Below are positions 13,443 through 42,612 of a stretch of DNA of 64,000 nucleotides, one piece after another; positions within the stretch are counted from its first letter, which is position 1, and the number at the start of each line of letters is the position of its first letter. Location of the stretch: assembly GCA_017514025.1 (NCBI GenBank), contig JAFWLB010000002.1, forward strand, positions 62,346 through 126,345, in the 5' to 3' direction. The position numbers were made by a program, and so were the translations under genes. Below the pieces are notes generated by a model. The model did not search any database. It saw only the letters and a program-made list of their open reading frames with translations, and was not told where the DNA came from. The stretch is from Candidatus Saccharimonadota bacterium. Its GTDB lineage: Bacteria > Patescibacteriota > Saccharimonadia > Saccharimonadales > Saccharimonadaceae.

Positions 13443-13463
13443 ATGATATAATTATATCATATG
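13440..13463. promoter_or_regulatory. Perfect 24-bp palindrome forming two overlapping divergent extended -10 promoters
   Basis: CATATGATATAATTATATCATATG is self-complementary and ends in the start codons of dnaG (-) and the 13461 gene (+); each strand reads TGATATAAT-N8-ATG. Confidence 0.8.
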
Positions 13464-14090
13464 GACGGGCAACAATATTTGGATCAGATTTCAAATGCAA
13501 ATGCACCTAAAAAAGCCAAACCGGCCAATAAACGGGGCATTTTGCATAATAAATTCTTTATTGTGGGGATGATTGGAGTGGGGCTTTTGCTTTTGATTGT
13601 GATTTTGGGGGCGATATTGGGTGGTGGTAAGGATGGCGAAAAAAGTTTGAGCAGTAAGCTATATCTACATCTGGATGGCACGGCAGCGGCAATTCAAGAA
13701 TATCAGAATTATGTGCGGTCTTCGGATTTGCGTTCGAGTAGTGCTTCGTTGTACGGGGTGTTGACGGATACGTCTAGTGGGTTGGAGAAATATTTGACCG
13801 AAAAGTATGATATCAAAAAGGTGAAAGATACTGATAAAAAATTACAGGAAAAGGCCACTGCGGCAAAAGATGAGCTGACTGGCGAATTATTTGAGGCGAA
13901 GATAAATGGGATTTTGGACAGGACGTTTGCGCATAAGATGGCTTATGAGATTTCGATTATCAAGGCGGAAGAATCTGAGCTTTATAATAAAACAAATAGC
14001 GAGGTTTTGAAGGAAGTACTAAATAAATCGCATGAGAGTCTGACGAATTTGTATGATAAGTTTAATGATTTTTCGGAAACTAAAAATTAA
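13461..14090 (+). CDS. Hypothetical membrane-anchored helical protein
   Basis: 209 aa, one N-terminal TM, natural codon pattern, promoter directly upstream. Confidence 0.75.
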   Translation: MDGQQYLDQISNANAPKKAKPANKRGILHNKFFIVGMIGVGLLLLIVILGAILGGGKDGEKSLSSKLYLHLDGTAAAIQEYQNYVRSSDLRSSSASLYGVLTDTSSGLEKYLTEKYDIKKVKDTDKKLQEKATAAKDELTGELFEAKINGILDRTFAHKMAYEISIIKAEESELYNKTNSEVLKEVLNKSHESLTNLYDKFNDFSETKN

Positions 14091-22145: not shown

Positions 22146-23084
22146 ATGGAAGTGAACGATTTGATAAATGATTTTTTGGAGCATTTGGAAATTGAAGCGG
22201 GGCGAAGCCAGAAGACGTCGGAAAATTACCGACTATATTTGGAAAGATTTTACGAAATTGCATTGGAGATTTTAAATAAGAACGAACTGAAGCCAAACGA
22301 AATTACGAAAGAGCTGCTGAGAAAATATAGACTGAAGTTAAACCGATACGGAACGGAAAACGGTGACGAAAATTTGAAGGTGATTACGCAGGCGTATCAT
22401 TTGATAGCGCTCCGGGGGTTTTTGAAATATTTGGCGAGGCGAGATATAAAATCACTAGATCCGTCGCTGGTGGATTTACCGAAAGTGGTGCGGAAACAGG
22501 TAACTTTTTTACATTATGACGAAGTAGAGGATATGCTGAACCAGATAGATTTGTCGACGGAGTCGGGCTTAAGGGACAGGGCGATTATTGAGCTGTTGTA
22601 TTCGGGGGGGCTACGGGTATCGGAGCTAGTGGGGCTAAACCGAGATTCGATTAATTTGGAGCGGCGGGAGTTTATGGTGCGAGGGAAAGGCTCAAAGGAT
22701 CGGCCGATTTTTATCAGCAAGTCGGCGGCGGACCGAGTGCAAGATTATTTAGACGCGAGGACTGATTCCCTGCCGGCGCTTTTCTTAAATAATTCGCGGA
22801 ATTTGCAGGCGGTGGATACGAGCGGAAATTACCGGCGGATTACGACGCGATCGGTGGAACGAATTGTGGAGAAATATGCACGGCTAGCGGGAATTACGAA
22901 GCACGTATCACCACATACTTTGCGCCATTCATTTGCGACAGATTTACTGATGAACGGAGCGGATATTCGCTCAGTACAATCGATGCTGGGGCATGCGGAT
23001 ATTTCGACTACGCAGATCTATACGCATGTGACAGATGCACATCTGAAAGAAATTCACGATAAGTTTCATTCGGAGACGCAGTAG
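22146..23084 (+). CDS. XerC/XerD-family tyrosine recombinase
   Basis: SAM-like N-domain; catalytic R (GLRVSE), K (RGKG), HxxR (PHTLRHSFAT), LGH, Y (TTQIYT). Confidence 0.95.
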   Translation: MEVNDLINDFLEHLEIEAGRSQKTSENYRLYLERFYEIALEILNKNELKPNEITKELLRKYRLKLNRYGTENGDENLKVITQAYHLIALRGFLKYLARRDIKSLDPSLVDLPKVVRKQVTFLHYDEVEDMLNQIDLSTESGLRDRAIIELLYSGGLRVSELVGLNRDSINLERREFMVRGKGSKDRPIFISKSAADRVQDYLDARTDSLPALFLNNSRNLQAVDTSGNYRRITTRSVERIVEKYARLAGITKHVSPHTLRHSFATDLLMNGADIRSVQSMLGHADISTTQIYTHVTDAHLKEIHDKFHSETQ

Positions 23085-23085
23085 G

Positions 23086-24819
23086 CTAGTAGCTGGTTTG
23101 AGGGGAGCCGTTGCTGCAGGTGTTGCGGTCTACGAGGGCGCCGTTTTTATAGGCAAAGACGTTCCAATATTCGCAGGAGGATTTGGCGGTGGAACGATAG
23201 GTTTTGGTGCCGAGGTAAGGGCCGGAAACAGTGATGGTGATGTCGCCACCGATAGTACCGGGGTTAGTCCAGTTGCGAATGTAATAATAGTAATCGCGAC
23301 CGCCGAGAGTGTTGATAGTAAAGGTTTCGTTATACCAGTTACCACTACTGTAAGAAGCGCGGCCATCGTGGTCTAGCTGGGCAAGAATACGGGTAACGCC
23401 GTTAACGGTTTCACTGGGAGCGAGGGCACCGTAGTAAGCCTGGAAGCTGCTGCCATTAGATTTTTTACCGGAAATATAGGTATCGTAGTCGGTGTTGGAG
23501 GTCCAGGTGGCTTTGATAGTGATAGTTTCGTTACGTTCGCCCCAGTTGGTGTAAAGTTTAAGGGTGCGGTTAGCGCCAGAGAATGCACTGGTCGGGAAAC
23601 TGATGCCAGTTGGGAAAGTATAATCGGGAGCATAAGAGGTGCCACTACAAGTGCCGTTGTTGGCGCTAGAGTAAACGGTGCACCAGTTACGAAAGACGTA
23701 GCCGGAAGCGGTAAGAGTGACGGGGTTGATTTTGCAGGTCTCGTCTTGGTAGCAAGTTTGGGTGGTTTTGTAGCCAGTGCGGCCGTCTGGATAAGAAATG
23801 TTGTATTCGATGGTGTAGGGGATATGAGTCCATTTGGCGCGGAGATTGTAGACCTTAACGGTATTATCTTCGTCATTAGTGAGAACGGCACCACCTTCGT
23901 AAGTTTGGTGAGTGACTTTGTCTTCCCAGGCGAAGGTCCAACCAAGGCGAGGAGCAACTTCGGGAAGAACAACTTTACGAGCGGGAGGTTTGGAACCATA
24001 GTCGCCGGCGATTGGATCGCTATCAAAGACGGCTCTGACGAGGCCACCGCCGTTTAGGACATCAGGGTCGTAGAGGCGGATGACGGTGGAAATAGTGGAG
24101 GGCTGATCGGCGTCGGTGCCATACCAGCAGGTGCGAATATAGAAGTCATAGAAAGCGGATTCATTGGAAGTGATGCCGTCAGCAACATCGACAACTTTGG
24201 TAGAATTAGCATCTTTGACGGCGATGACGTAGATGCCTTCAGCTCGGAATAGGTTAGTGTTGGCATTGTCATCGATAATAGCATCTTGTTGGGTAGTATT
24301 ACTAGCAGAAGTAGAACCTTTGTAAATGAGACGGGGGTTGATGGTAGCACGCTGAAGAATTTTTTGACCGCTAGTGGTGGCGGTACTATTGATATAAACA
24401 GAATTGATATTGCTGGTAGTGAAGGTGCCGAGGGCGCGAGGGTTTAAAACAAACATGTTGCCGCTGGTGGCGAAACTAGATGTATAGAGACTGTCGCAAG
24501 AAGTTGGGGCATAGTTGAGAACCTCATTTTGCTGGTCGGAACTGAGTTTGCTGAGGTCAATGGCTCTACTGGTAATGGATTTCCAGAGATCGTAGAATTT
24601 GTTGTCTTTGGTGTCGTTTTTGCTGATGGCGTAGGCGGTTTGGACGAAGCGGAGAGCTTCGGCCTGAGTGTCTATCTCTTCGCGAGCGATGGTGGTTTCG
24701 AGGGCGGTTTGCGCACCGGAAGTGCTACCGCTCAAAACTGCGGCGACAGCAATGGCGACCATAGAAAAAATCCCGACTGCAAGAGCCACCTCAACCAATG
24801 TATCACCCTTTTTAAACAT
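23086..24819 (-). CDS. Large minor pilin / putative pilus-tip adhesin
   Basis: Class III signal KG|DTLVEV plus hydrophobic helix; InlB B-repeat-like segments (GWTFAW, GYVFRNWCT) and a C-terminal 'W.SNTDYD...LDHDG...ETF' domain. Confidence 0.75.
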   Translation of the reverse strand: MFKKGDTLVEVALAVGIFSMVAIAVAAVLSGSTSGAQTALETTIAREEIDTQAEALRFVQTAYAISKNDTKDNKFYDLWKSITSRAIDLSKLSSDQQNEVLNYAPTSCDSLYTSSFATSGNMFVLNPRALGTFTTSNINSVYINSTATTSGQKILQRATINPRLIYKGSTSASNTTQQDAIIDDNANTNLFRAEGIYVIAVKDANSTKVVDVADGITSNESAFYDFYIRTCWYGTDADQPSTISTVIRLYDPDVLNGGGLVRAVFDSDPIAGDYGSKPPARKVVLPEVAPRLGWTFAWEDKVTHQTYEGGAVLTNDEDNTVKVYNLRAKWTHIPYTIEYNISYPDGRTGYKTTQTCYQDETCKINPVTLTASGYVFRNWCTVYSSANNGTCSGTSYAPDYTFPTGISFPTSAFSGANRTLKLYTNWGERNETITIKATWTSNTDYDTYISGKKSNGSSFQAYYGALAPSETVNGVTRILAQLDHDGRASYSSGNWYNETFTINTLGGRDYYYYIRNWTNPGTIGGDITITVSGPYLGTKTYRSTAKSSCEYWNVFAYKNGALVDRNTCSNGSPQTSY

Positions 24820-24826
24820 AAGTTTA

Positions 24827-25657
24827 TTATAACATACTTTGGAAGAAATTGGCGAAAGTTAGCACGATTACGAAAGCGGTGATTAGAAAAGGGCCGAGGT
24901 GGATCTTGGGGGCTTTTTTGGGATTTTGGAAAGATTTGAGAGAAAAAAGGCAGGCAAGGAAGTTGGCAAGAAAGAGAGTGAGGAGAGCGAGCCAAGCTTG
25001 CCCGAGAGCGACGGCGAGGGCAAGGGCGAGAAGCCAGTCGCCGTCTCCGACCCATTTGCCTTTGGAAACGAGGTAGAGAGCGAGATAAGTGCCGGCGAGA
25101 ATAAGAACGGCGAGGACTGGTTGCCAAATAAGCTCGGGGGCAAAACCGGTAGTGATGATAGTGGAGGCGGTTTTGAAGGCGAGAAGAAGAAGGGCGAGGG
25201 CGAGGGCGAGGAAGAGAAAGGCAGTGGGGAGTTCGCCATAGAGACCGTCGTAGATGGCGCAGAAAATGAGGGGGAGAGTGAGGAGGAGAGTGGTGAGAAG
25301 GATGGGCCAATCGAGAGGGGAGGCGGTATCTAAATTGACAGTGGTCCCGAGGGCGAGAAAAGCAGCACCAGTGCCAAGCTCGGAAAGGAATTCAGCGAGG
25401 CCGATTTTTTGGTGGCAATAGCGGCAGTGCCCCCTAAGGGCGAGCCAAGAGATGATGGGGAGGTTGTCATACCATTTTAGAGGTTTTTTGCAATGGAGAC
25501 AGACAGAGCGGGAAGGGAGCTTGGTGCGCTTGGCCTTGGGGTGGGCTCTATTTCCCCGCTCTTTTTCGCGAAGGTGGAGGCGACGAGCTTGGCAACATAA
25601 AAAGGAGCCGAGACAGGCGCCAAGGACGAACAAGAAGATTAAAAATACAGCTTGCAT
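24827..25657 (-). CDS. pilD: Prepilin peptidase (A24)
   Basis: GSFL, RSVC..C...L.WYDNLPIISWL.LRG.CRYC, 'AIYD' and 'G.GD' catalytic aspartates, 'LGPFL'. Confidence 0.95.
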   Translation of the reverse strand: MQAVFLIFLFVLGACLGSFLCCQARRLHLREKERGNRAHPKAKRTKLPSRSVCLHCKKPLKWYDNLPIISWLALRGHCRYCHQKIGLAEFLSELGTGAAFLALGTTVNLDTASPLDWPILLTTLLLTLPLIFCAIYDGLYGELPTAFLFLALALALLLLAFKTASTIITTGFAPELIWQPVLAVLILAGTYLALYLVSKGKWVGDGDWLLALALAVALGQAWLALLTLFLANFLACLFSLKSFQNPKKAPKIHLGPFLITAFVIVLTFANFFQSML

Positions 25658-25693
25658 ATTGTTATTTTAGCATAAATAATTTATAATTAGGGT

Positions 25694-26230
25694 ATGAAAA
25701 AGGGTGATTTTAGGGGCAAGAGGGGGTTTACGTTTGTGGAGGTGGCTTTGGTACTGGCGATTGCGGGTTTGATTTTCTTGATGGTGTTTATCGCTTTGCC
25801 AGCAGTACAGCGGGTGCAAAAGGATTCAGAACGACAAGAGAATGTCTCGAATTTATTAGCGGCAATTAAAAAATATCAAACGAATAACCGGGGGGCGTTG
25901 CCAGTGGGAACGGGAACGGCAACGTATACTACGGGCTCGGTGACAAAAAATTCTTGGGCGGGCTTTTACAAGGAATATCTAGGGGCCGATTTTACGGATC
26001 CGACGGGAAATAATTATACATTGAACGTAGTAAACTGTGGAAACACTACTGGCGGCGTGTGTGAACCTACGAAAGATGTGGAGAATAAGACTTTTCCGAA
26101 TGGATACACGATTTATTTGGTAATTGGGGCAAGTTGCGATGGATCGACGGTGATAGGCACAGAAAATCCGCGCAAGGTTGCTGCGACTTATAAGCTCGAA
26201 GGGGCTGGAGCGTTTTGTAATCATACATAA
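25694..26230 (+). CDS. Type IV pilin (paralog 1)
   Basis: RG|FTFVEVALVLAIAGLIFLMVFIALP; conserved Cys residues; leaderless-type promoter. Confidence 0.92.
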   Translation: MKKGDFRGKRGFTFVEVALVLAIAGLIFLMVFIALPAVQRVQKDSERQENVSNLLAAIKKYQTNNRGALPVGTGTATYTTGSVTKNSWAGFYKEYLGADFTDPTGNNYTLNVVNCGNTTGGVCEPTKDVENKTFPNGYTIYLVIGASCDGSTVIGTENPRKVAATYKLEGAGAFCNHT

Positions 26231-26232
26231 CT

Positions 26233-26315
26233 TGAACTTTTCTTTGGACAAAGAAAAGTTCAGCAAAAGAAACCAGCTCTAAAAATAAACCGGGAATGAA
26301 TCCCGGTTTATTTTT
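26233..26315. terminator. Two consecutive hairpins between convergent pilins
   Basis: TGAACTTTTCTTT-ggac-AAAGAAAAGTTCA, then AAAAATAAACCGGGA-atga-ATCCCGGTTTATTTTT (bidirectional terminator form). Confidence 0.75.
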
Positions 26316-26352
26316 CGTCTTCGGTTGTATGACTCCGTTGGAGCCATACAAA

Positions 26353-26868
26353 TTACTGGCTGGCGGTACAGTAGGCGTGATTGCCACTTTCTACGTAACC
26401 GTAAACTGCAAATGCGCGTTTGGAGGGGTTTTCTTTGGGGAAAGCGTCGCCCGTTGATGAGTTGGCGCCGTCGCAGTCTGCCCCGATGACGACGTACACG
26501 TCAGTCTTATTTAGCTTATCGGCTGCATTTAAATTGGCAGATTCAAATTGGTCCCAGGTACATGCATACAATTTGTAGCTGTCTCCGTCTGGAGTGGTCC
26601 CATCTTTATTTATATATGCGCTGGCAGACAAGTTGCCTTTACAATTATCGCCATCGGAAAGGCGACTCAATTTGCCGCCGTTGTTGGTGGAATAGTTGGT
26701 GATTGCCGTGGAGAGCATTGAATAATCATTACGGCGCTGGGTGTCACGCTGATTTCTTTGCATCGCGGGGAGGGCGATGAAGACCATCAAGAAAATGAGG
26801 CCGGCGATGGCAAGTACCAAGACCACCTCAATGATGGTAAACCCTTTACGTTGATTGGTTGTTTTCAT
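26353..26868 (-). CDS. Type IV pilin (paralog 2, major-pilin-like)
   Basis: KG|FTIIEVVLVLAIAGLIFLMVFIALPAMQRNQRDTQRRND; AGAAAGG SD. Confidence 0.93.
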   Translation of the reverse strand: MKTTNQRKGFTIIEVVLVLAIAGLIFLMVFIALPAMQRNQRDTQRRNDYSMLSTAITNYSTNNGGKLSRLSDGDNCKGNLSASAYINKDGTTPDGDSYKLYACTWDQFESANLNAADKLNKTDVYVVIGADCDGANSSTGDAFPKENPSKRAFAVYGYVESGNHAYCTASQ

Positions 26869-26894
26869 GTTTTTACCTTTCTATTAATTTTTAT

Positions 26895-26922
26895 ATGTCG
26901 CACAAGTACGATTATGCGACAT
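26895..26922. repeat. 28-bp 11-6-11 palindromic site A (dif-like, or 5'-UTR hairpin of pilin 2)
   Basis: ATGTCGCACAA-GTACGA-TTATGCGACAT. Confidence 0.75.
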
Positions 26923-27024
26923 TAAAAAGTCATTTTATTAGAGAAAAACTGTGCAAAAACTCTTATAAAAAATTCTAAAAAGCTATTGCTTTTTTAAAAG
27001 TTTCTGATATGATGAAATAAAGAG

Positions 27025-27052
27025 ATGTCGTCAAGTCGTACTTGTACGGCAT
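27025..27052. repeat. 28-bp site B, inverted copy of site A (22/28 identical, same 6-bp spacer)
   Basis: ATGTCGTCAAG-TCGTAC-TTGTACGGCAT; reverse complement ATGCCGTACAA-GTACGA-CTTGACGACAT. Confidence 0.75.
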
Positions 27053-27082
27053 TAGCGTAAAAATCTAGAAAGGATCTAAAAT

Positions 27083-27622
27083 ATGGCAAAAGAAAATATC
27101 AACTCTAAAAAAGGTTTCACGATCATTGAGGTGGTGTTGGTGCTCGCGATTGCGGGTTTGATCTTCCTGATGGTATTTATCGCCCTCCCCGCCATGCAAC
27201 GGAACCAACGGGATACCCAGCGCCGTAATGATTACTCTATGCTTTCTAGCGCAATTACTAGTTACTCTTCCAGCAACCAGGGCAAACTCTATCGGTTGGC
27301 TGGCGCGACTTCGGCGGTGACCGAATCGAAGAACAAGGTTTTGGATGCGAAAACGTATATTAATAAGGAAGGCCAAGATCCAAATGGTAAGGATTATGTT
27401 TTGACTGCTTACACTTGGAAGGGTTGGACGGCAAAGGGTAACTCTGCGACTAGTGCGAATAAGCCGGCAGAATCTACGGTAAACGTGATTGTTGGCGCAG
27501 ATTGTACAGGCTATGATTCACGTGGTTATTCAATACCAAAAGATAATGCTTCTTCGCGAGCGTTTGCTATCTTTGGTTATATTGAATCTGGTAGTAATAC
27601 CTATTGTGCTGATAGCCAATAA
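27083..27622 (+). CDS. Type IV pilin (paralog 3, major-pilin-like)
   Basis: 46-aa N-terminal block identical to paralog 2; AGAAAGG SD; promoter TTGCTT-16-TATGAT at 26986-27013. Confidence 0.93.
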   Translation: MAKENINSKKGFTIIEVVLVLAIAGLIFLMVFIALPAMQRNQRDTQRRNDYSMLSSAITSYSSSNQGKLYRLAGATSAVTESKNKVLDAKTYINKEGQDPNGKDYVLTAYTWKGWTAKGNSATSANKPAESTVNVIVGADCTGYDSRGYSIPKDNASSRAFAIFGYIESGSNTYCADSQ

Positions 27623-27632
27623 AACAAGCTAG

Positions 27633-27662
27633 AAAAACCACTCCTTACGGAGTGGTTTTTTG
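27633..27662. terminator. Bidirectional intrinsic terminator
   Basis: AAAAACCACTCC-ttac-GGAGTGGTTTTTT. Confidence 0.88.
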
Positions 27663-27740
27663 ATGGCGGCGATTCTAGCGAGAGATGATAGCGAGGAAAT
27701 GGGGGTGGACGACGAGTGGAAGTTTTGTTTCCCTGCTGAC

Positions 27741-28946
27741 TCAAGCGGAGACGGAGTTGACGAGAGAGTAAATCGGGAGCAACGTGCCGCCGACGACGAC
27801 GCCGATGAGGCCGGCCATGATGACCATAAGGATGGGCTCAATCATGGTGGAGATGTTGTTGATTTGTTCGTCTAGTTCGTTTTCGTAGACTTGGGCGGCT
27901 TTACCGAGCATTTCGTCGATTTTACCAGATTCCTCACCGATTGAAGCCATCTGGGGGACGAGCGGGAGCATATATTCCCTGTCCTTCAAGGCTTCGGAGA
28001 GAGGTTTGCCACCTTTAATGATTTCGAGAGATTTAGAATATTCTTCCTCGACGACAGTGTTGGTGACGGAACTGATAGCGATTTTGACGGAATCAAGCAT
28101 GGGAACGCCGGTAGCAAGCATCATTTCGGCAGTACGAGCGAAACGAGAAACATAGAGTTTGCGGAAGAGGCCGCCAAAGAGAGGGACATTGAGCTTAAAG
28201 GTATCGGCAACTTTGCGACCGGCAGGAGTCTTTTTGACGGCATACCAACAACCGATGATGATGCCGGCGACGATTAAGATGACAAGCCACCAGAAATTGC
28301 CAAAGAAGCTGGAAATATCAACGAGAACTTGGGTGAGGGCGGGGAGAGTTTCACCCATGTCTTCATAGAGGCCTTGGACTTGAGGTACGACCATGATCAT
28401 CATGAAGGCAAGCACGGCGATAATAACGACGAGAATGATAGCCGGATAAACGAGGGCGCCTTTGATTTTGCTCATCATGGCGGCGTCTTTTTCTTCTTGG
28501 TCGGCGAGGCGTTTCAAAGCGAGGTCTAGAGTACCAGAAGTTTCACCAGCCTTGATAAGAGCGAGATAAACACCGTTGAAAACGTCAGGATATTCCGAAA
28601 AAGCCTCGAAAAGAGATTTACCAGATTCAACTTTGCCGAGAATTTCCTCAATAATAGTCTTCATGGCCTTGGCTTGAGTCTGTTCGGCGACAGTGCGTAA
28701 CGAAGCAGCGAGCGGAAGACCAGCGCCAATCAAAGTGGCAAGCTGGCGAGTGAACATGACACGATCTTTGGACGTAACGTGGCCTTTTTTGCCAAAGAGG
28801 CCGTTACCTTCTTCAACTACAGATTCGGGGATATATCCCTGCTCAATCAAAAGATGTCCAGCGATTTGTTCGGTTTCGGCAGAAATACTGCCTTTGATGG
28901 TTTTGCCGGTTTCTTTCTCTTTAGCTTTGTAGTTGAAACGGCGCAT
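27741..28946 (-). CDS. pilC: Type IV pilus platform protein PilC (GspF family)
   Basis: FTRQLATLIGAGLPL, AGETSG.LD, KIKGAL.YP, IGEESG.ID.ML, IEP. Confidence 0.95.
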   Translation of the reverse strand: MRRFNYKAKEKETGKTIKGSISAETEQIAGHLLIEQGYIPESVVEEGNGLFGKKGHVTSKDRVMFTRQLATLIGAGLPLAASLRTVAEQTQAKAMKTIIEEILGKVESGKSLFEAFSEYPDVFNGVYLALIKAGETSGTLDLALKRLADQEEKDAAMMSKIKGALVYPAIILVVIIAVLAFMMIMVVPQVQGLYEDMGETLPALTQVLVDISSFFGNFWWLVILIVAGIIIGCWYAVKKTPAGRKVADTFKLNVPLFGGLFRKLYVSRFARTAEMMLATGVPMLDSVKIAISSVTNTVVEEEYSKSLEIIKGGKPLSEALKDREYMLPLVPQMASIGEESGKIDEMLGKAAQVYENELDEQINNISTMIEPILMVIMAGLIGVVVGGTLLPIYSLVNSVSA

Positions 28947-28947
28947 T

Positions 28948-30033
28948 TTAGCCCTTTACTAACCTGTTTAGTTCGTTGATATCGACGGCATATTCGCGAG
29001 CGGAGTCGTAGGTAATAACACCGGTTTGGACAAGTTTGGCGAGGGTGCGATCCATAGTCTGCATGCCTTGGTCGGCGCCAGTTTGGATGGCGTTGTCTAG
29101 CTGATGAGTTTTGCCATCGCGGATAAGAGCACGGATGGCAGAATTAGCAACCATGATTTCGGCGGCAACGACACGACCGCCACCGATAGCTGGAACGAGG
29201 CGCTGTGCACAAATGGCCATAAGCATATTGGAAAGCTGAGTGCGAACCTGAGGCTGTTGGTGTGATGGGAAAACGTCGATCATACGGTCAATAGACTGGG
29301 CAGCGGAGTTGGTGTGCAAAGTTGCAAAAACAAGGTGGCCAGTTTCAGCGATAGTGATGGCGGCCTGAATGGTCTCAAGATCGCGCATCTCGCCGATGAG
29401 AACGACATCAGGGTCTTCACGGAGGACGCTACGCAAGGCGGCGGCGAAGCTAAAGGTGTCATAGTGAACTTCGCGTTGAGCGATGACAGAGCGCTGAGAG
29501 CGATGGGTAAACTCAATCGGGTCTTCGATGGTAATAATGTGGGTAGACTTTTCGCGATTGATTTTGTCAACGAGAGCGGCGAGAGTGGTGGATTTACCGG
29601 AACCGGTAGGACCGGTGACGAGAACGAGGCCACGAGGAAAGTCAGCAAAAGTCTCGACGATGGCGGGCATGCCGAGGTCGTTGATGTTTTTAATTTGGTT
29701 GGGGATGAGACGGAAAGCTGCAGCGAGCTTGCCACGTTCGTGAAAGGCGTTAACTCGGAAACGAGCAATATCACCGAAGGCAAAGGAGTAATCAAACTCT
29801 TTGTCTTTCATGAGGATTTTTTGCTGCTCTTCGTCTAGGGTGGCAAAAACCAGGTTTCTGATGGCGTCTTCGTTTAGAGCGGAAGTGCCGGCGATGGGCG
29901 TAAGAACACCATCGACGCGGAGAATCGGCGGGAGACCATATTGAATATGTAGGTCCGAAGCGTTACGACGGACGCACTCTTCAAGTAGAGTTTCGATTTT
30001 TAGTGTTTGAGTTTGTTGCCCACTGTTTTCCAT
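28948..30033 (-). CDS. pilT: Type IV pilus retraction ATPase PilT
   Basis: GPTGSGKSTT, TIEDPIE, LREDPDVVLIGEMRD, AETGHLVFATLHTNSA, AIR.LIRDGK. Confidence 0.96.
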   Translation of the reverse strand: MENSGQQTQTLKIETLLEECVRRNASDLHIQYGLPPILRVDGVLTPIAGTSALNEDAIRNLVFATLDEEQQKILMKDKEFDYSFAFGDIARFRVNAFHERGKLAAAFRLIPNQIKNINDLGMPAIVETFADFPRGLVLVTGPTGSGKSTTLAALVDKINREKSTHIITIEDPIEFTHRSQRSVIAQREVHYDTFSFAAALRSVLREDPDVVLIGEMRDLETIQAAITIAETGHLVFATLHTNSAAQSIDRMIDVFPSHQQPQVRTQLSNMLMAICAQRLVPAIGGGRVVAAEIMVANSAIRALIRDGKTHQLDNAIQTGADQGMQTMDRTLAKLVQTGVITYDSAREYAVDINELNRLVKG

Positions 30034-30054
30034 AATATTATTTTACCACAATCA

Positions 30055-31821
30055 CTATGACAAGTCACTAGCGACACGGTTGACCTCCTCCATTGATGTT
30101 ATGCCTGATAGAACTTTGAGTACACCGTCCTGGCGCATAGTGACGGTGCCTTTCTCTTTGGCGAGACGCATGATTTCATTGGCAGTAGAATGATCGATGA
30201 TTTTTTTCTGGATATCTTCGTCGACGGTGATGGTTTCGTAAAGACCGGCACGACCTTTGTAGCCACCGGGAGTTTCTTTAGATTCTATACCTTTGGCGAG
30301 CATATAATAATTGTCGTTTTTAATGGGGAGACCGGGATAACCAAGGTCTTGGCTAACGGAGGCAGCTTCTTCCTTGTTTTTAGGGAGAAGGTTGCCGACG
30401 ATACTGTTGATGCCTTTGGTTTCGACTTCGGAAGATTTGTACATTTCGCGTTTTTCGGTAATACGGCGAACGAGACGCTGGCCGATGACAACGTTCAAAG
30501 TGGAGGCGAGGAGGAAGGGTTCAATACCCATATCCAGAAGACGCGGAAGGATACCGGCAGCGGAGTTGGTGTGGAGAGTGGAAAACACGAGGTGGCCGGT
30601 GAGAGCGGCCTGCACAGCGAGGCCGGCAGTTTCGGAGTCACGAATCTCCCCGACCATGACAACGTCAGGGTCTTGGCGGAGAATTGACCTCAGGCCGCTG
30701 GCGAAAGTGAGGCCGGCGTCGACATTGACCTGGATTTGATTGATGCCGTCCATTTTGTATTCAACCGGATCTTCTAGGGTGACAATGTTGATTTGTTCGG
30801 ATTTGATTTGCTGAATGAGGGCATAGAGAGTGGTAGATTTACCGGAGCCAGTAGGACCAGAAGTCAAAATCATGCCGTTGGGTTTTTTAATGCCTTCGAG
30901 AACGTCACGAAGGGCACGACCGGACATACCCATTTTTTCGATATCCATGGAGACGCCTTTTTTGTCAAGAAGACGAATAACAACCTGTTCGCCCCAAGTG
31001 ACGGGAGAAATAGCGATACGGAGGTCTATTTCCTGACCGTCAACCAGCACGGTAAACTGACCGTCCTGGGGAATGCGGTGTTCATCGATTTTAAGGGCAG
31101 CGAGGATTTTAATACGAGAAACGAGGGCGGGGGCGACGGTTTTGGGAAGCTCCATGATTTTGCGAAGGACGCCGTCGATGCGGCAGCGGATGATAAGGGA
31201 GTTTTCGAGAGGCTCAATGTGAATATCAGAGGCTTTGGTTTTGGCAGAATAGCTGAGGATAGTGGTAAGAGCCTTAGAAATAGGAGAATCCTCGACGATA
31301 GTTTTGGCATTAGACTTGGGAGTATCGTCGACTGCTTCCCCGCTGCCCTCTTTAACAACGTCTTTAACGCTAGAAATATCGCCGTGGTATTGGTTGAGGA
31401 TTTCCTGGATGCCTTGTTCGGAAGACATCCAAACCCGAATAGGCTGGTTGATAAGGTTGGAAAGGTAGTCGGTGGCCTGGACGTTGGTGACGTCGACCAT
31501 GGCAACGTTGAGCATGCCGTCTTTTTCGCCGAGAGCAACGGCGTGGACGCGGTTAGAGGCGTCGCCGGGAATTTTGGCGAGAGTGTCTTGATCGATAGTG
31601 ATGTTTTTTAGCTCAACATACGGGACGCCAATAATGGCGGCGGTGGCGCGAGCAACCATTTCTTCGTTGATGATTTTGCGATTAATAAGTTCAGAAAGAA
31701 GTGGTTTGTCCTCGGCGTCGACTTGTTGCCAGATGGTGTTGACTAGATTGCGGTCGGCTAAACCCTCGTTTAAGAGGAGCTCGGTAATCCTTCTTTCGGC
31801 GTCTTTAGTAAGGAGTGCCAT
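30055..31821 (-). CDS. pilB: Type IV pilus assembly ATPase PilB (GspE/PulE family)
   Basis: ASDIHIEP, PQDG, GPTGSGKSTT, LRQDPDVVMVGEIRD, GYKGRAGLYE. Confidence 0.96.
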   Translation of the reverse strand: MALLTKDAERRITELLLNEGLADRNLVNTIWQQVDAEDKPLLSELINRKIINEEMVARATAAIIGVPYVELKNITIDQDTLAKIPGDASNRVHAVALGEKDGMLNVAMVDVTNVQATDYLSNLINQPIRVWMSSEQGIQEILNQYHGDISSVKDVVKEGSGEAVDDTPKSNAKTIVEDSPISKALTTILSYSAKTKASDIHIEPLENSLIIRCRIDGVLRKIMELPKTVAPALVSRIKILAALKIDEHRIPQDGQFTVLVDGQEIDLRIAISPVTWGEQVVIRLLDKKGVSMDIEKMGMSGRALRDVLEGIKKPNGMILTSGPTGSGKSTTLYALIQQIKSEQINIVTLEDPVEYKMDGINQIQVNVDAGLTFASGLRSILRQDPDVVMVGEIRDSETAGLAVQAALTGHLVFSTLHTNSAAGILPRLLDMGIEPFLLASTLNVVIGQRLVRRITEKREMYKSSEVETKGINSIVGNLLPKNKEEAASVSQDLGYPGLPIKNDNYYMLAKGIESKETPGGYKGRAGLYETITVDEDIQKKIIDHSTANEIMRLAKEKGTVTMRQDGVLKVLSGITSMEEVNRVASDLS

Positions 31822-33065: not shown

Positions 33066-34331
33066 TTAGCCTTCTCCGTTTACGTTTTTAGTATTATCGC
33101 TACAGGTAGTGTCGTTGGCGTCACAGTCAGTAGCACGTTGGCTGAACATGGCCTGGACTTGGAGATAGGAATCGGTGACATTATGGCGACCAGAAGGTGC
33201 AACGGCGAGCATATGAGTGTTGGAAAATTGGTAAGCTTCTGGGGCAATAAGGATGGTGGCAGAAAATCTCAAAACGAGTTGTTCGTCAGCGTCGCGACCG
33301 TTGGTGGCTTCGGAAATGCTGATACCTTCGGTGCTGCCGCCGGGTACAAGCTGACATTCATCATTGGTCTTGGTCCAAGTAGGATTGTCTTCGTCACCTT
33401 CGCCGGTGTAAGTGGTGCAGGCGCTTTCGAAGTGGGCGACGTTGGTGATAGTGCCATCAAGGCTGATGGAGGGCTGGTTGCCAGTGGGGTTTTTGTGATA
33501 CCAATCTTTTTGAGGTGTGCGCCAGATACGGACGACTTGTTGGCCTTCGTATTCTTCGAGGTCATAGCCTTCGGTGGGATTAGTAGTGTCTTCATCGGCG
33601 GCGGGGTTGCAGCCTTCGCCGTTGATAGTCCAGAGAGCATAAATGCTGTTATTATCTTGACTGGAAAGGCCGCGACGACCGGTGTCAGTGAAAATCGCAC
33701 CATCGGAACCGGATTCAATCATGCAGTAAGCAGGGATAGTGTTGCCGTCCTTGTCGACGTAACTACCATAATCGTAGCGCATTTCATCCATACTCTTGCG
33801 GAAAGCTTCGAGTACGGCGAAGTCAATGTAGGGTTCGTTACCAGAGTTCGCCTGAGCGTCAAAGGTAAAAGTAGGTTGCTCCTCGGCGAGGTCGACGTCC
33901 ATCTCGGAAATGGTGATGGTGTCACCGCCGGTCGGCAAGAAAGCGGAGAGGATATTAAAAGTACGAGAGAGGACTTTTTTGTTGTCGGTCAAAGTAGAGA
34001 CGTCGCCGAGCTGATCTTTAATAGTAAGAAAATCATTGAGATCACTGTAAGAAGCGAGTTTGGCAGAAAGATTATCGATGGTGCCTTTTTTGCTGTTGAT
34101 GGCGATTTGCTGGCCACCAGCGGTAATACCAAAAATCAAGGTGATGCCGATGCTGGCAGAAGCGACAACGATACAGATGAAGAAGATGAAATTGCGAAGT
34201 TTCAGGGTTTTAATCATTTCGTTCTTGATATCGGGAACGAGGTTGATTTCGCGATGATATCTGCGAAGAGCACTACCTTTTTTGGGGGTAAGCTTGCTGA
34301 TGATATCGGAAATTTTGAACTCTTTAGCCAT
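33066..34331 (-). CDS. PilN-like alignment protein with large Cys-containing insertions
   Basis: 'EINLVP' PilM-binding motif, TM, coiled coil; directly after pilM. Confidence 0.65.
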   Translation of the reverse strand: MAKEFKISDIISKLTPKKGSALRRYHREINLVPDIKNEMIKTLKLRNFIFFICIVVASASIGITLIFGITAGGQQIAINSKKGTIDNLSAKLASYSDLNDFLTIKDQLGDVSTLTDNKKVLSRTFNILSAFLPTGGDTITISEMDVDLAEEQPTFTFDAQANSGNEPYIDFAVLEAFRKSMDEMRYDYGSYVDKDGNTIPAYCMIESGSDGAIFTDTGRRGLSSQDNNSIYALWTINGEGCNPAADEDTTNPTEGYDLEEYEGQQVVRIWRTPQKDWYHKNPTGNQPSISLDGTITNVAHFESACTTYTGEGDEDNPTWTKTNDECQLVPGGSTEGISISEATNGRDADEQLVLRFSATILIAPEAYQFSNTHMLAVAPSGRHNVTDSYLQVQAMFSQRATDCDANDTTCSDNTKNVNGEG

Positions 34332-35377
34332 TAGTCATTGCTCCTTTCTGATAGGCCAATAGCGACAGCGAATTCGCTGGCGACAGGCGCAAGAACACGT
34401 TGCTGTTCGGGAGTAGTCCGGACGAGCTGCCAAGGGTTACCTTTGACCGTGGGGACGTTGGTTTTGGCTTCAATAAATTCGGGGAAAAGCGGAATCATGC
34501 TAGCATAACCAGAGAGAACGATGCCGCCAACTTTGCCACTGAGATATTTGGTCTGGAAGAAACGGACGGATTTGGTAAGCTCGGAAGCGAAATTATCAAG
34601 ATGAGTGTTGAGGATTTTGAAGACTTGACCTTCGACTTGGTTTTGATCGAGACCAAATTTGAGGATAAATTGACGGGCTTGATCTTCGCGAACGCTAAGA
34701 CCGTTAGCGACGGCCTTGACCAAAACGCCGATACCACCGGGGATGGAGCGAACGAGACGAGGTTGGTCTTTGTAGTTGATAGCAATATCGGTAGATTTTT
34801 CACCAAAGTCGACCACCATGGTAGCATCCATGGCGCCAGGAATATTGAGAGAGCGGGCCATGGCGAGAGGCTCTGGTTCCATGGCGACGATGTTGAGGCC
34901 AGTTTTTTCAATCATTTCCATAGTGGACTCGGCGTAATCTTTAGCGATGGAAGAAACGAGGATTTCGGTTTTGGCCGGGTCGTTAGGGCTGGGGCCGAGG
35001 ATGATATAATCGGCTTTAGCATCGCTAAGGGACATAGGGACGTATTTGTCGAGCTCGTATTTGAAAGATTTAGCGAGTTCTTTTTCGGGGAGAGTTTCAG
35101 TTTCGACAACGGAAGTGAAAGTTTTAGTAGCGGGAAGACCGAGTGCGACGTTTTTAGTCTTAATACCGGCTTGATTGACGGCACCCATGACCGCTTCACC
35201 TAAGCGCTTTTTACCCAAATCAGAAGAGTCCATTGTGAGTTTTTGATCGATGGGGACGTAAGCAAATTTTTGGAGAACCCAACCGTGCTGGATGTTACCA
35301 GAAAGCTGGATAATCCGCATCGAGTTCGTCCCTATGTCTAGCGAGAAGAAGTCGCCCACACCATGCAATAAGTTCAT
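34331..35377 (-). CDS. pilM: Type IV pilus assembly protein PilM
   Basis: LDIGTNSMR, VDFGEKST, L.R.IP.G, IVLSG actin-like fold motifs. Confidence 0.93.
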   Translation of the reverse strand: MNLLHGVGDFFSLDIGTNSMRIIQLSGNIQHGWVLQKFAYVPIDQKLTMDSSDLGKKRLGEAVMGAVNQAGIKTKNVALGLPATKTFTSVVETETLPEKELAKSFKYELDKYVPMSLSDAKADYIILGPSPNDPAKTEILVSSIAKDYAESTMEMIEKTGLNIVAMEPEPLAMARSLNIPGAMDATMVVDFGEKSTDIAINYKDQPRLVRSIPGGIGVLVKAVANGLSVREDQARQFILKFGLDQNQVEGQVFKILNTHLDNFASELTKSVRFFQTKYLSGKVGGIVLSGYASMIPLFPEFIEAKTNVPTVKGNPWQLVRTTPEQQRVLAPVASEFAVAIGLSERSND

Positions 35378-39224: not shown

Positions 39225-42200
39225 TTATTTCCTCTTTATTGCTTGAAATGTATTCATGGTAGGATAAATTGTACTAGGATCCCATTCTTTATTGAGGGTG
39301 TTATCTTCGCCATTGCCTTTACTGTCGGCGACAAGCCATTTGCCGCTACCGGTGATACCACGGATACCGATGCAGTGACCACCGCTAGTAAAGGGTTCGC
39401 CGCCGTTGCCGCAAGTCCAAATCATCCAGCCATCTTTGAGCTTGGCGCTGACTTCTTCCATGGAAGGACTGCCCATGTCTTCGTGTTTGAGGCCGAAGTG
39501 ATCGGCAATAATGGCAGGCAAAGAATGACTGGAACCGGCGCCACAAACATGCCCACCACGATCGCCAGCATACTTACCGACTTCGTCTGGCAAAATCTCC
39601 TTGCCAGTGAGAGCGGTAGCCATCATGGCAAAAGATGCTACGCCGCAGCCACCTTCGCAAACATTATTACCTCCTCCAGGGCATGGTGGGCCGAATTCAG
39701 CATTAGCCCACCTGTCGTCGCATTGATTATACCACGGAAAGTCACCAGTCCAAGTATTATTATCACATGGGTCGTCATTTTGACCTTGAAGAGATTTAGA
39801 TACCATGTTCCAAATGTTGCCGGGGTCGGTATGGTCATTATCGGGAACGTGCATGTGGCCGAGAATGCCCTTGTAATTTTTGAAGTCATTGACACTGAGG
39901 CGGCTGGGGCTTTCCCAGTCTACATTGGTGGTGAGGGGAATGCTGGTCTCGGAACTGATGGCGGCAAGAAGCTTGCCGAGGTAAGCCCAGCTGTCATCGC
40001 TGAAGTTATCACTATTTAGTAAATACCAGTCGCTATCTTTATGGTCATCGGAGAAACCAATGATTTCGATTTGGACGCCAGCGGCATCATCGTGAGATGC
40101 GACGGCGTCAGCAGGTTTAGTGATGGGAAGATGTTGGAAGACTTTTTTAGTTTTCATGTTGATAGTGAAGTGTGCTGGAAAAATACCGTGGCCGTGATCA
40201 TTGCCATAAAGGGCAAGGCCGCTGTTGCCATCGCCGGCATCTCCGTCAGTGCTGTGGAGAGTGATTTTGTTGGGGCCGGAACTGCCGTCTTTAGGAGAGA
40301 CGGTGGAATAATCACCATTGTGAGCGCTGTCGCCGAGTTTATAGCTAGAACCGACGGCGGGTTCTTTGACATAGCCTTCCATGCCACCAGTGATCCAGCC
40401 GTCCGCCCATTGCACGGTGGAGCTGGCGACGCCGTCACTATTGGAGTTGTAGGAAGTGGAGACGCTTTCACCGAGGATTTCGGAAAGCTTGTCGGTGTTT
40501 ATGTGGCCATTGAGGTCGGCGTAGAGGATGCCAGATTCTGGCATAGAATAGCGCCAAACGTAGGCGAGACCATCACTTTTGCCTCTCCAGCCACCCCAAG
40601 CGGCTTCGATGGTGATGACTTCGTCGCCTTCTACACCGACAACGATGCCGGTGTGATTATCGCTACCGTGAACGACGGTGCCACCGGGGTTGGAAAAGAC
40701 GGAAAAGGCAATGGGTTTATCACTAGTTTCCAGATGATAATCGGCGGCAAGGTTGCCGGCGGTGTCGAGACCGTCACCCCTGGTAGGATTGTCGGTGTTA
40801 CCGCCCGTTAAATCAGTTAGGTTTGCGACGAACCAGCCACTAAAGGCTACACAGTTTTCTTTGGTGCCTTGATAATAGCCTGAACCTAGAGGAGTGGAGT
40901 CGGCATTGTAGTAGTCGGCGATTTTTTGGGCTTGAGCTTCGGTGAGACCACCGGAGATTGTAGTGGCTTGGTCAGGCTTCTCACAACAGGGGTCGTCTTG
41001 CTTGTTAGTATTACTACTGGTGCCAAGCCCCTGCATGATGAGATCGACGAAGAGTTGACCGCCTTCGGCGTTGGGGTGGACGGCATCTTGCATGTATTTA
41101 CCGGGGTCTTGACTGGCTTCAGTTTTCCAGTCGACGAGGATAACTTTATCATTAGCCTCGGCGAATTTTTTGAAGTTTTCGTTGTTGATGTTATATTCTT
41201 TGTCGGAGTCGCGGTAGTAATTAGTGAGAATGACAATTTTTTCACAGCTACTAGCTAGGTCTAGAAGTTCATTGAGTTTGTCTTCAGAGACGGCCCTACC
41301 GCTTTTGTTGCCATTATTTGATCCAAGGGCAAAAACGAGGTTTTGACGAAGTTTGCCTTCATCCTTGAGTTTCTTGAGAATAGTGAGACCATCTTCGCCA
41401 CCTTGCGCATCATAGCCGCTAGGATCCCAGAAAGGTTTGGAAGATTGAACGTAGAGGTCGGCGTTGGGGAGTTTTTCATTGTAGATAGACTGGGCGCCGT
41501 AGCTGATGGAGTCGCCAATGACGGTGACGTCGGAGCCGTCGCCGGTGTAGGTGCCATTGGTTTTGCCGCCACCAGCGCTAGTGCGGCCAGTGGACATACT
41601 AGAGCAGTCGGCGTGGAGAGAGTGTGGCTCGGCGTTAATCTGATTTTTGATGTCGCCGTTCACCGGCCAGTTGCCGCCTTTGGGGATGTCTTTTTGTTTT
41701 TGGAGTTCAGTGGAAGTGGGATAGCCCATAGATTTGGCGACTTCGTGGATTTTGTCGATATCCTGATCATAAACTGAGAGATAGTAGGAGCCGCAGCCGG
41801 CAGTACAGTAGATGCCATCGGTTTCAGCTAAGAGGAATTGGCGCGGGTCAAAGTTGCTAGGCTGGGCGTATTCAAAGGCGGCGTCATAGGCGCCATTACG
41901 AAGATAGTCGGCAGCGAAAGACATAAACATGTCGGCAAGGTTTTCATACATGGAGCCGAAGCCACCATCGGAGTGCCAGGCGCGACAGGAACCCATTTCG
42001 TCAGCGGAGATGCCGTAAAGTGAGCTGTTGCCGTATTTGTAGCCCATCCAGTTGTAATAGCCGCATAATTCGGTAGTGTGAGCGACTGATGGGTCGGCGA
42101 GGCCAAAGTGCGATTCGGCGTGGGCGTGAATGATAGGGATTTCCCAGGGAATGCCGTATTCTATCTGCATATTCATAAGCATGGAGCCGTATTTTTCGAC

Positions 42201-42485
42201 TACTTCGACAAGACGCTCTTCCCAGGTAGAACCGGTAATTTCACCACCGCAAGGACCGCTGATATTGCTAGCGTTGCAAGGCATCCAGTTGGTGATATTA
42301 TTCTGGGAGAATAAATTGCGATCTGCTTGAAGAAGAGTAGTGGAGTCTCCCTTTTGCGTATTGGCGGCAGAAGCAGGTGTTCCTCCTATCAAGAACACTA
42401 GGAACAAAAAGAAAAACAAAAAAATTGTTTTAAGTTTTCGCTGACAAACTATTGAATACTGAAAACCATTGCTCCCACTAAGCAT
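39225..42485 (-). CDS. Secreted 1086-aa multidomain cell-wall hydrolase (lysozyme-like, SGNH, CHAP, amidase_2, C39-like)
   Basis: Signal peptide; 'HAESHFG' glycosidase-like; GDS/GSNN/DAVH; NCVAF...HTGIV; TLHST...GHMHVP.NDHTDPG; YNQ...GCG...GHC...ADS. Confidence 0.8.
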   Translation of the reverse strand: MLSGSNGFQYSIVCQRKLKTIFLFFFLFLVFLIGGTPASAANTQKGDSTTLLQADRNLFSQNNITNWMPCNASNISGPCGGEITGSTWEERLVEVVEKYGSMLMNMQIEYGIPWEIPIIHAHAESHFGLADPSVAHTTELCGYYNWMGYKYGNSSLYGISADEMGSCRAWHSDGGFGSMYENLADMFMSFAADYLRNGAYDAAFEYAQPSNFDPRQFLLAETDGIYCTAGCGSYYLSVYDQDIDKIHEVAKSMGYPTSTELQKQKDIPKGGNWPVNGDIKNQINAEPHSLHADCSSMSTGRTSAGGGKTNGTYTGDGSDVTVIGDSISYGAQSIYNEKLPNADLYVQSSKPFWDPSGYDAQGGEDGLTILKKLKDEGKLRQNLVFALGSNNGNKSGRAVSEDKLNELLDLASSCEKIVILTNYYRDSDKEYNINNENFKKFAEANDKVILVDWKTEASQDPGKYMQDAVHPNAEGGQLFVDLIMQGLGTSSNTNKQDDPCCEKPDQATTISGGLTEAQAQKIADYYNADSTPLGSGYYQGTKENCVAFSGWFVANLTDLTGGNTDNPTRGDGLDTAGNLAADYHLETSDKPIAFSVFSNPGGTVVHGSDNHTGIVVGVEGDEVITIEAAWGGWRGKSDGLAYVWRYSMPESGILYADLNGHINTDKLSEILGESVSTSYNSNSDGVASSTVQWADGWITGGMEGYVKEPAVGSSYKLGDSAHNGDYSTVSPKDGSSGPNKITLHSTDGDAGDGNSGLALYGNDHGHGIFPAHFTINMKTKKVFQHLPITKPADAVASHDDAAGVQIEIIGFSDDHKDSDWYLLNSDNFSDDSWAYLGKLLAAISSETSIPLTTNVDWESPSRLSVNDFKNYKGILGHMHVPDNDHTDPGNIWNMVSKSLQGQNDDPCDNNTWTGDFPWYNQCDDRWANAEFGPPCPGGGNNVCEGGCGVASFAMMATALTGKEILPDEVGKYAGDRGGHVCGAGSSHSLPAIIADHFGLKHEDMGSPSMEEVSAKLKDGWMIWTCGNGGEPFTSGGHCIGIRGITGSGKWLVADSKGNGEDNTLNKEWDPSTIYPTMNTFQAIKRK

Positions 42486-42511: not shown

Positions 42512-42612
42512 GCTAGGCGGAAGCCAAACTATCGACTTTTGCGAAGCAAAAGTCGTCCAGCGTCGCTCGCTCAATAAAACAAAAGCTTTTGTTTTATGTT
42601 TGCTCCGCTAGC
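42512..42612. repeat. ~100-bp branched palindromic (REP/MITE-like) element
   Basis: Outer arms GCTAG(G)CGGA / TCCGCTAGC enclose hairpins CGACTTTTGC-gaa-GCAAAAGTCG (42533-42555) and ATAAAACAAAAGCTTTTGTTTTAT (42574-42597). Confidence 0.7.

Follow-up and report, generated by a model that had tools for sequence, protein, structure and literature searches.

Does the DNA between two divergent pilin genes in the pilus locus of a gut Saccharibacteria stay fixed, or does it invert and decide which pilin is expressed? The question is raised by 64,000 nt of contig JAFWLB010000002.1 (hereafter the window; all coordinates are positions in it), where pilin 2 (26353-26868, minus strand) and pilin 3 (27083-27622, plus strand), which encode type IV major-pilin-like proteins of 171 and 179 aa, are separated by an intergenic region of 214 bp. 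An initial annotation of this DNA had proposed an invertible promoter bounded by two dif-like 28-bp sites and had offered duplicated mRNA leader hairpins as the alternative. We found that a 124-bp segment of the intergenic region is present in both orientations in metagenome runs, and it very probably acts as a site-specific invertible promoter that toggles between pilin 3 and pilin 2.

Like other Patescibacteria, Saccharibacteria spend their lives attached to bacterial hosts, and they are ultrasmall episymbionts. To our knowledge, almost nothing is known about the regulation or variation of their pili. Of the means by which they move and bind hosts, type IV pili have been documented best. For strain TM7x, one such pilus has been found essential and responsible for twitching, and a second one contributes to host binding and competition (PMC11623550).

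Two inverted sites and their crossover core

Site A (26895-26922, 28 bp, ATGTCGCACAAGTACGATTATGCGACAT) sits in the 5′ leader region of pilin 2 and consists of an outer arm ATGTCGCACAA, a spacer GTACGA, and an inner arm TTATGCGACAT, in an 11-6-11 layout. Site B (27025-27052, 28 bp, ATGTCGTCAAGTCGTACTTGTACGGCAT) consists of an inner arm ATGTCGTCAAG, a spacer TCGTAC, and an outer arm TTGTACGGCAT. As the initial annotation had stated, the two sites form an inverted pair with a shared core; they lie 102 nt apart, and 22 of the 28 positions (79%) are complementary. The perfect shared run extends beyond the 6-bp core given there by 4 nt of one arm (ACAA + GTACGA). The left crossover core (ACAAGTACGA, 26902-26911) is thus 10 nt long and is the reverse complement of the right one (TCGTACTTGT, 27036-27045). 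The invertible segment, 26912-27035, measures 124 bp between the cores or 144 bp with the cores included, and both inner arms and the only conserved promoter lie inside it.

A degenerate pattern for A and B matched only these two sites in the 64 kb, with 0 matches expected from 100 shuffles. In an Rfam search of the window, no known RNA family was matched at the sites or close to them; four tRNAs passed the gathering threshold, and the remaining matches were at chance level. In addition, a metagenome scan with the pattern ATGNCGNACAAGTACGA, which is too short for a database of 241 million records, listed 120 loci, all of them chance matches, mostly coding, and none with the full dyad.

Both orientations in metagenome runs

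The run data are contigs from a k = 31 assembler, not raw reads, and depths are mean k-mer depths, so rare forms would escape. In runs X1-X3, the region was covered by three contigs, 25660-26911, 26902-27045 (144 nt), and 27036-27822, whose ends mark the final k-mers before a core is crossed. For a de Bruijn graph to break at such positions, the sequence past each core must continue in two ways. Thus, the breaks at both cores mean that the segment between them is present both ways in X1-X3.

The inverted junction itself was found as a 50-nt contig, in which 27016-27045 is followed by GCGACAT and ATAAAAATTAATA (26882-26901 as reverse complement). The reciprocal junction was represented by a loose end, GATTTTTACGCTA, which matches 27053-27065 in reverse complement and stands ahead of 26895. 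In X1, the reference junctions (26882-26931 and 27016-27065) had depths of 23.5 and 22.6 and the inverted junction 31.5, giving a sum of 54, against 51.5 for the middle contig. The corresponding depths were 29, 31.1, and 48.4 in X2 (sum 79, middle contig 75.4) and 20.5, 18.2, and 28.8 in X3 (sum 47, middle contig 44.2). The depths of the flank contigs (47-50, 72-77, and 36-37 in X1, X2, and X3) agree with these sums. The inverted fraction was 58-61% in all three runs, which is a reference to inverted ratio of about 40:60. The exchange is reciprocal and takes place within the 10-nt core.

Furthermore, a 232-nt contig of X10 crosses the inverted joint, connecting 26912 and 27036 on opposite strands with 10 nt that fit both sides. 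X8 had the reference form only, and X5, X6, and X7 had signs of both forms. Reference and inverted junctions occurred together in the contigs of at least five distinct runs; X4 gave the exact figures of X1, and X6 was close to X5, and these were counted as repeats. In independent ENA assemblies, two scaffolds from a single sample, of 154 kb and 64.8 kb, terminate exactly at the two cores, the 154-kb one (scaffold_65) beginning with the right core TCGTACTTGT, and another scaffold has an N gap at 26820-26912. The initial annotation had named a search for both orientations of 26923-27024 as a test of the switch, and the result is positive. Two features of invertons, inverted repeats bounding a segment and two coexisting orientations, are seen here.

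In X1-X3, the 18.9 kb to the left of the switch contained 0 variant letters or indels at a frequency of at least 5%. Thus, the 40:60 mix does not consist of two diverged strains, and the population in these runs is clonal apart from the switch.

A look-alike of site A was also seen on a contig of another organism (1022 nt in X1-X3, 229 nt in X7). It corresponds to 26891-26928 over 38 nt with five mismatches and lies 11 nt upstream of a Shine-Dalgarno (SD) sequence and ATG. This contig is unbroken, and its depth ratio to the main genome depends on the run.

The same probable switch in other lineages

A protein search with pilin 2 returned thousands of Saccharibacteria pilins, and the contigs were examined for a few of them. 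Three further lineages (L140, L142, and L144) have the same layout, with divergent pilins, 28-bp sites, and the conserved promoter between them. Written as outer arm, spacer, and inner arm, with right-hand sites as reverse complement, the left and right sites are ATGTCGCACAA-GTACGA-TTATGCGACAT and ATGCCGTACAA-GTACGA-CTTGACGACAT in the window, ATGTCGCACAA-GCATGA-TTATGCGACAT and ATGTCATACAA-GCATGA-CTTGACGACAT in L144, ATGTCGCACAA-GCATGA-TTGTGCGACAT and ATGTCGCACAA-GCATGA-CTTTACGACAT in L140, and ACGTCGCACAA-GTGCGA-TTTTAAGACAT and ATGTCGTACAA-GTGCGA-CTGCACGACGT in L142. All eight sites have the 11-6-11 layout with a spacer of the form G-NNN-GA, and the motif ATGTCG is present in 16 of 16 arms.

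The inversion recurs in these lineages. L141, from a different sample, corresponds to the L140 locus except that the middle segment is flipped and the sites have changed places to match. L143 has the inverted junction of the L142 locus, and the crossover again falls in ACAA + spacer. The comparison of orientation in relatives, which the initial annotation had also suggested, therefore gave two lineages that were assembled oppositely in different samples; mixing inside single samples was seen for the lineage of the window.

Spacers are identical within the pair in all four lineages and variable between lineages. For instance, the right pilins of the window and L144 are 97% identical and their site-A arms agree at 22 of 22 positions, yet the spacers differ at two positions in both sites. 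Run X12 contains the L144-type spacer and one further variant (TCGCTC). Strand exchange by tyrosine recombinases requires, and maintains, matched spacers. A change in both sites at once speaks against separate mRNA loops, because such loops need not change together. The pattern that the initial annotation had set against a switch, in which stem pairing is kept and the core is lost, was not observed: the core varies with the lineage, yet it is identical within each pair.

Relatives with a single pilin served for comparison. The promoter is present and the 28-mer absent in L002-L004, L134, and L145-L148, and an unrelated small hairpin is found in the leader of L135 and L137. In L136, the leader of the single pilin contains one solitary look-alike of the site, at 2440-2467 (cTGTCATGCAA-CTATTC-TTGTATGACt). 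Compared with the sites of the window, it shows compensatory and wobble changes, and no partner lies in the 5-kb locus; it may be what is left of a switch or a forerunner of one. In an alignment of ten lineages, the leaders of those with the switch contain the 28-nt site as an insertion. In addition, a scan of a genome collection with pilin 3 gave six Saccharibacteria loci, none with the sites, which served as switch-less controls; the closest loci there belong to ruminant-gut Saccharibacteria and Nanosyncoccus metagenome-assembled genomes.

Promoter and probable leader hairpin

The pilin promoter of the reference orientation (26986-27013, plus strand) consists of a -35 box TTGCTT (26986-26991), 16 nt, and the -10 box TATGAT (27008-27013), which is extended by TG at 27005-27006 (TGaTATGAT, 27005-27013). 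It faces pilin 3, and the predicted transcription start is at about 27019-27023. All 10 lineages aligned, whether or not they have the switch, share a conserved block ...AAAAGCTnTTGCTTTTT...TAT(G/T)AT... ahead of the orthologous pilin. The promoter read by the initial annotation is thus present, and it is conserved in nine other lineages. A consensus promoter scan omits it because the -35 box matches at only three of six positions. The weak TAAAAT that the initial annotation had placed before pilin 2 exists in the window (26932-26937, minus strand), but it is absent in L140 and L142, and the other half of the segment is not conserved among the switch loci compared. Thus, there is a single conserved promoter in the segment, and a flip should move transcription from pilin 3 to pilin 2.

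The RNA data come from one metatranscriptome run with 6% of words, which is too thin to define a start site or orientation-specific expression. A single contig of 151 nt and low depth, from a near-identical strain, covers 27029-27180 and ends near the predicted start, which points to a transcript that includes site B.

Both sites fold as hairpins, better on the sense strand than on the antisense strand, as the initial annotation had read from the letters. The promoter-proximal site starts 11 nt past the -10 box. Its sense strand folds at -9.9 to -13.4 kcal/mol and beats the antisense strand in eight of eight cases (four lineages in both orientations), and L136 has compensatory pairs. For the promoter-distal site of the same lineages, the range is -1.6 to -15.3 kcal/mol and the strand bias is inconsistent. 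Because the inner arm moves with the promoter, the leader of the expressed gene always consists of the promoter-proximal inner arm, the spacer, and the gene's own outer arm. The leader hairpin is probably a second function of the promoter-proximal site, and it does not compete with inversion.

Proposed mechanism

We propose that strand exchange in the ACAA + GTACGA core by a recombinase, most probably a tyrosine recombinase, flips 26912-27035. In the orientation of the window the promoter would drive pilin 3, and after a flip it would drive pilin 2, the other gene being left promoterless. The promoter-side inner arm would travel with the promoter and, together with either outer arm, would form a stable 5′ stem-loop in the mRNA of the active pilin, so that one site would double as crossover site and leader hairpin.

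Over their full length, pilins 2 and 3 share 58% identity, which falls to 43% past residue 60. Both should fit the same pilB-pilT-pilC machine, because a stretch of 46 residues in the assembly domain (KGFT to MLS) is identical in the two. With exposed domains that are only 43% identical, the switch would change the surface of the pilus.

Several points weigh against this reading. The nearby Xer gene described below, which encodes a candidate catalyst, is equally present in switch-less genomes. The link between orientation and transcription is inferred, and the sole RNA datum is the 151-nt contig. X1-X3 probably belong to one project, judged by their ENA sample names, and X4 duplicates X1, which limits the independence of samples. 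Furthermore, assembler contigs and mean k-mer depths miss rare forms, and contigs alone are compatible with a stable mix of two sublineages fixed oppositely.

The recombinase and alternative explanations

The candidate enzyme is a 312-aa Xer-type tyrosine recombinase encoded at 22146-23084 (plus strand; Pfam, NCBIfam). The open reading frame (ORF) is intact and matches Pfam Phage_integrase (4.6e-44) with a SAM-like N-domain, and the residues R...K...HxxR...H...Y can be read in the sequence. It scores 260 bits with XerD and 246 with XerC, both below the equivalog cut-offs, and 220.8 with archaeal XerA, just over the cut-off of 220. Two NCBIfam "tyrosine-type DNA invertase" models match weakly (51 and 44 bits against cut-offs of 222 and 221), and such matches do not make this Xer a FimB/E homologue.

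A tblastn search of the 64-kb window with Xer, Hin, and FimB found nothing besides the Xer at 22146-23084. A Pfam search of 26 proteins, of which 22 are neighbours of the switch, found no second recombinase domain within about 15 kb. Orthologues of this Xer that are 89-90% identical stand at the same position in L002 and L004. In addition, 312-aa integrase genes stand at the same position in L142 and L146-L147, and most such loci are without the switch. An FtsK/SpoIIIE translocase with alpha and gamma domains is encoded at 42594-44795 (minus strand). The presence of Xer and FtsK in the same 64 kb suggests a complete dimer-resolution system. This Xer looks like the housekeeping dimer-resolution enzyme, because it is syntenic in switch-less relatives and the FtsK gamma domain is present. 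The initial annotation had pointed to it by proximity. The gene does encode a full-length tyrosine recombinase, but proximity is unspecific, since orthologues also stand beside single pilins without sites. In our judgment, the Xer at 22146-23084 and an unseen enzyme elsewhere in the genome are about equally good candidates for the catalyst.

In low-depth Logan contigs (depth 2-10) of X1-X3, position 22358, inside the Xer gene, is joined to 12484 with eight extra letters (GACCGAGA). This joint may be a chimeric contig or sequence common with another organism.

The likeness of the sites to dif lies mainly in the 11-6-11 layout. Compared with E. coli dif as quoted in the initial annotation, the arms of site A match at 6/11 and 8/11 positions and the inner arm of site B at 4/11. 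The GC skew is positive (0.09-0.29) in every 4-kb window of the 64 kb. By this measure, the whole window is on one replichore, with the plus strand leading. A and B are not the chromosomal dif, because there are two copies, they lie in a pilus locus, and the window has no skew switch. They could still be dif-like targets. We also considered the 28-mer at 13926-13953 (TTTGCGCATAA-GATGGC-TTATGAGATTT), which is closer to E. coli dif than the switch sites are. It was rejected as dif, as it lies inside the ORF 13461-14090 and the GC skew keeps its sign across the window; its resemblance is probably due to chance.

Among the alternatives, the one that survives best is a dedicated invertase encoded elsewhere in the genome, to which we give a little less than an even chance. 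In its favour, relatives that have no sites carry the same conserved, syntenic Xer, the accompanying FtsK gamma domain fits housekeeping dimer resolution, and the inspected portion of the genome is 64 kb. On the other side, no further recombinase was found within about 15 kb or, by tblastn, in the window, whereas invertases are usually adjacent to their sites, and Saccharibacteria genomes are very small. Furthermore, the invertases of the analogous Mycoplasma and Ureaplasma switches are of the Xer family (PMC2268961, PMC3599477). Our own more specific model, in which the housekeeping Xer (with FtsK) of these reduced genomes moonlights as an invertase on dif-like sites that arose within the pilin leader, one short element is at the same time recombination site, portion of a promoter cassette, and RNA stability element, and the left pilin is an exchangeable cassette, is tentative and slightly less probable than that alternative.

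It is unlikely that the segment flips without a site-specific recombinase, by a RecA-type process, by microhomology, or by template switching of replication at the inverted repeats. Being nearly palindromic, each site can extrude as a hairpin or cruciform, the exchange occurs inside 10 nt of identity, and no dedicated invertase gene adjoins the sites in the window searches. However, homologous recombination usually needs far more than 10 bp, and a longer identity close by is not used. The N-terminal coding parts of pilins 2 and 3 form an inverted repeat of 177 nt that is 77% identical, with 31 of its 40 mismatches at third codon positions and a longest exact run of 20 nt. The contigs are unbroken through this repeat, and the exchange uses the 10-nt core. 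This argues for site recognition and not for homology length, because the 10-nt core is used while the 20-nt exact run is ignored. The junctions are also precise, reciprocal, and of high frequency. In addition, the 11-6-11 dyad, the ATGTCG of all 16 arms, and the pair-matched spacer correspond to the anatomy of tyrosine-recombinase core sites.

Slightly less likely still is a fixed polymorphism of coexisting strains, or a rare past event, in place of an active reversible switch. The data consist of contigs only, some runs have a single orientation (X8 reference, X10 inverted), and X1-X3 may be related samples. Against this, the flank of 18.9 kb is free of variants at or above 5% despite the 40:60 forms, the inverted form makes up 58-61% at three different depths, and both orientations occur in three separate lineages. 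Furthermore, core identity has been kept while neighbouring synonymous sites diverged by 23%.

Finally, it is very improbable that the 28-mers are merely duplicated 5′ leader hairpins of paralogous pilin mRNAs, serving stability or translation control on fixed DNA: the better sense-strand folds with wobble pairs valid there alone, the consistent promoter-proximal bias, the compensatory changes of the L136 look-alike, the different small hairpin of L135 and L137, and the RNA contig that includes site B all fit a leader hairpin, but inverted junctions account for about 60% of the depth, L140/L141 and L142/L143 were assembled in opposite orientations, the spacer (the loop) co-varies between the sites of a pair, and the promoter-distal site retains its dyad though no conserved promoter transcribes it, so the hairpin is refuted as the sole explanation and survives as a second function of the promoter-proximal site.

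Pilin paralogues and neighbouring genes

Window pilin 2 is 61% identical to the left pilin of L144 (22-549), though the right pilins are 97% identical, and the nearest relative found of pilin 2 is the single pilin of L134 (73%). On these identities, the left pilin gene behaves like an exchangeable cassette. In the paired pilins of L142 (2246-3552), L140 (950-2314), and L144 (22-1302), shared exact runs of 41-62 nt were seen in the N-terminal coding region, and both pilins of L142 carry a lineage-specific residue pattern, IAWPALQ. These runs hint at gene conversion between the paired pilins of L140, L142, and L144.

The gene content of the locus is that of the PilT-containing "locus one" of TM7x (PMC11623550), and the genes flanking the switch have the N-terminal methylation motif of type IV pilins. 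A prepilin peptidase (24827-25657, minus strand) and pilin 1 (25694-26230, plus strand) precede pilin 2. The SD sequence of pilin 2 (AGAAAGGT) is at 26875-26882 on the minus strand, and that of pilin 3 (AGAAAGGA) at 27067-27074 on the plus strand. Bidirectional terminator hairpins lie between the convergent pilin 1 and pilin 2 (26281-26315) and after pilin 3 and pilC (27633-27660). Pilin 2 and pilin 3 thus each look monocistronic, because each is followed by its own terminator. The genes pilC, pilT, and pilB follow at 27741-31821 and pilM at 34331-35377 (all on the minus strand), with three unassigned ORFs of 102, 310, and 421 aa between pilB and pilM.

Two further proteins were observed in the window. 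The 577-aa pilin-like protein at 23086-24819 (minus strand) has a prepilin-type N-terminus, a weak GspI match, and no Pfam domain, and its counterparts in relatives are of 580-806 aa with faint Flg_new matches; it may be a large minor pilin or a tip adhesin. A 1086-aa protein at 39225-42485 (minus strand) has GDSL-lipase-like, CHAP, and C39-like peptidase domains, and it may be a secreted enzyme that degrades cell wall or host envelope.

Biological meaning

With a pilin toggle, the cells of a clonal episymbiont population would differ in their main surface filament. Host range, evasion of pilus-specific phages or gut antibodies, and the way in which metagenome assemblies of these genomes break would all be affected. 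The switch may thereby alter pilus phenotype, host choice, and phage evasion. In addition, 124 bp with two 28-bp sites form a compact system for asking whether a lone Xer serves as an invertase. If the moonlighting-Xer model is true, ultrasmall episymbionts would gain a programmed change of the pilus with which they move on and hold their hosts.

Comparison with known systems

In the Moraxella Piv system and the R64 shufflon (Rci), DNA inversion decides the type IV pilin variant, and the Piv enzyme lies outside the tyrosine recombinase family. What is inverted there is coding sequence downstream of a fixed promoter and a constant N-terminus, whereas here the promoter moves and the genes stay, with the crossover falling in the leaders at 26-30 nt before the start codons. 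Campylobacter fetus sapA has an invertible element with a single promoter between opposed homologues that share conserved 5′ ends. That element is of kilobase size and uses long RecA-dependent homology. In contrast, the crossover here is in a 10-bp core outside the long 5′ homology of the genes, and the longer coding homology is ignored.

E. coli fimS with FimB-FimE and the invertons of Bacteroides and C. difficile (PMC6083910) resemble this switch in that a short promoter segment with short inverted repeats is flipped and the orientation is mixed within the population; as is predicted here too, the flip is made by a tyrosine recombinase and a surface filament is controlled. However, fimS turns one operon ON or OFF, with dedicated adjacent recombinases and 9-bp repeats, whereas the element described here would toggle two alternative subunits, no dedicated invertase is seen, and the site probably doubles as a leader hairpin. 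In the mba locus of Ureaplasma parvum, XerC binds short inverted repeats and inverts the phase-variable surface-antigen locus, and CodV binds a putative dif (PMC3599477). Ureaplasma differs in having three tyrosine recombinases with divided tasks and chimeric genes, whereas the breakpoints here are in the leaders.

Among invertible-promoter switches, the nearest are the single-promoter, several-gene systems of Mycoplasma, namely vpma of M. agalactiae, which is switched by an Xer1-type tyrosine recombinase, as well as vsp of M. bovis and vsa of M. pulmonis (PMC2268961). As in vpma, the organism is a small-genome symbiont or parasite that depends on its surface, and a set of alternative genes for surface proteins has one promoter in common. 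Each gene has its site in the conserved 5′ untranslated region, inversion sets the promoter before another gene, and an Xer-like recombinase gene is at the locus. The differences are that two back-to-back genes are involved here and 124 bp flips, that the products are type IV pilins and not lipoproteins, and that the 28-bp dyads share a 10-bp core, whereas the vpma sites have a 21-bp identical block. Furthermore, the recombinase here is a candidate and the Xer is housekeeping-like.

A full-text search of a paper library found no report of an inversion-based switch or phase variation in Saccharibacteria or Patescibacteria, and no comparable toggle of two complete alternative major type IV pilins. 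The apparent absence of a dedicated invertase is new as well, and so are the compact 28-bp dyad sites that probably double as a leader stem-loop. The element thus belongs to a familiar class of switches; the phylum is new, and so is the target, two complete alternative major type IV pilins.

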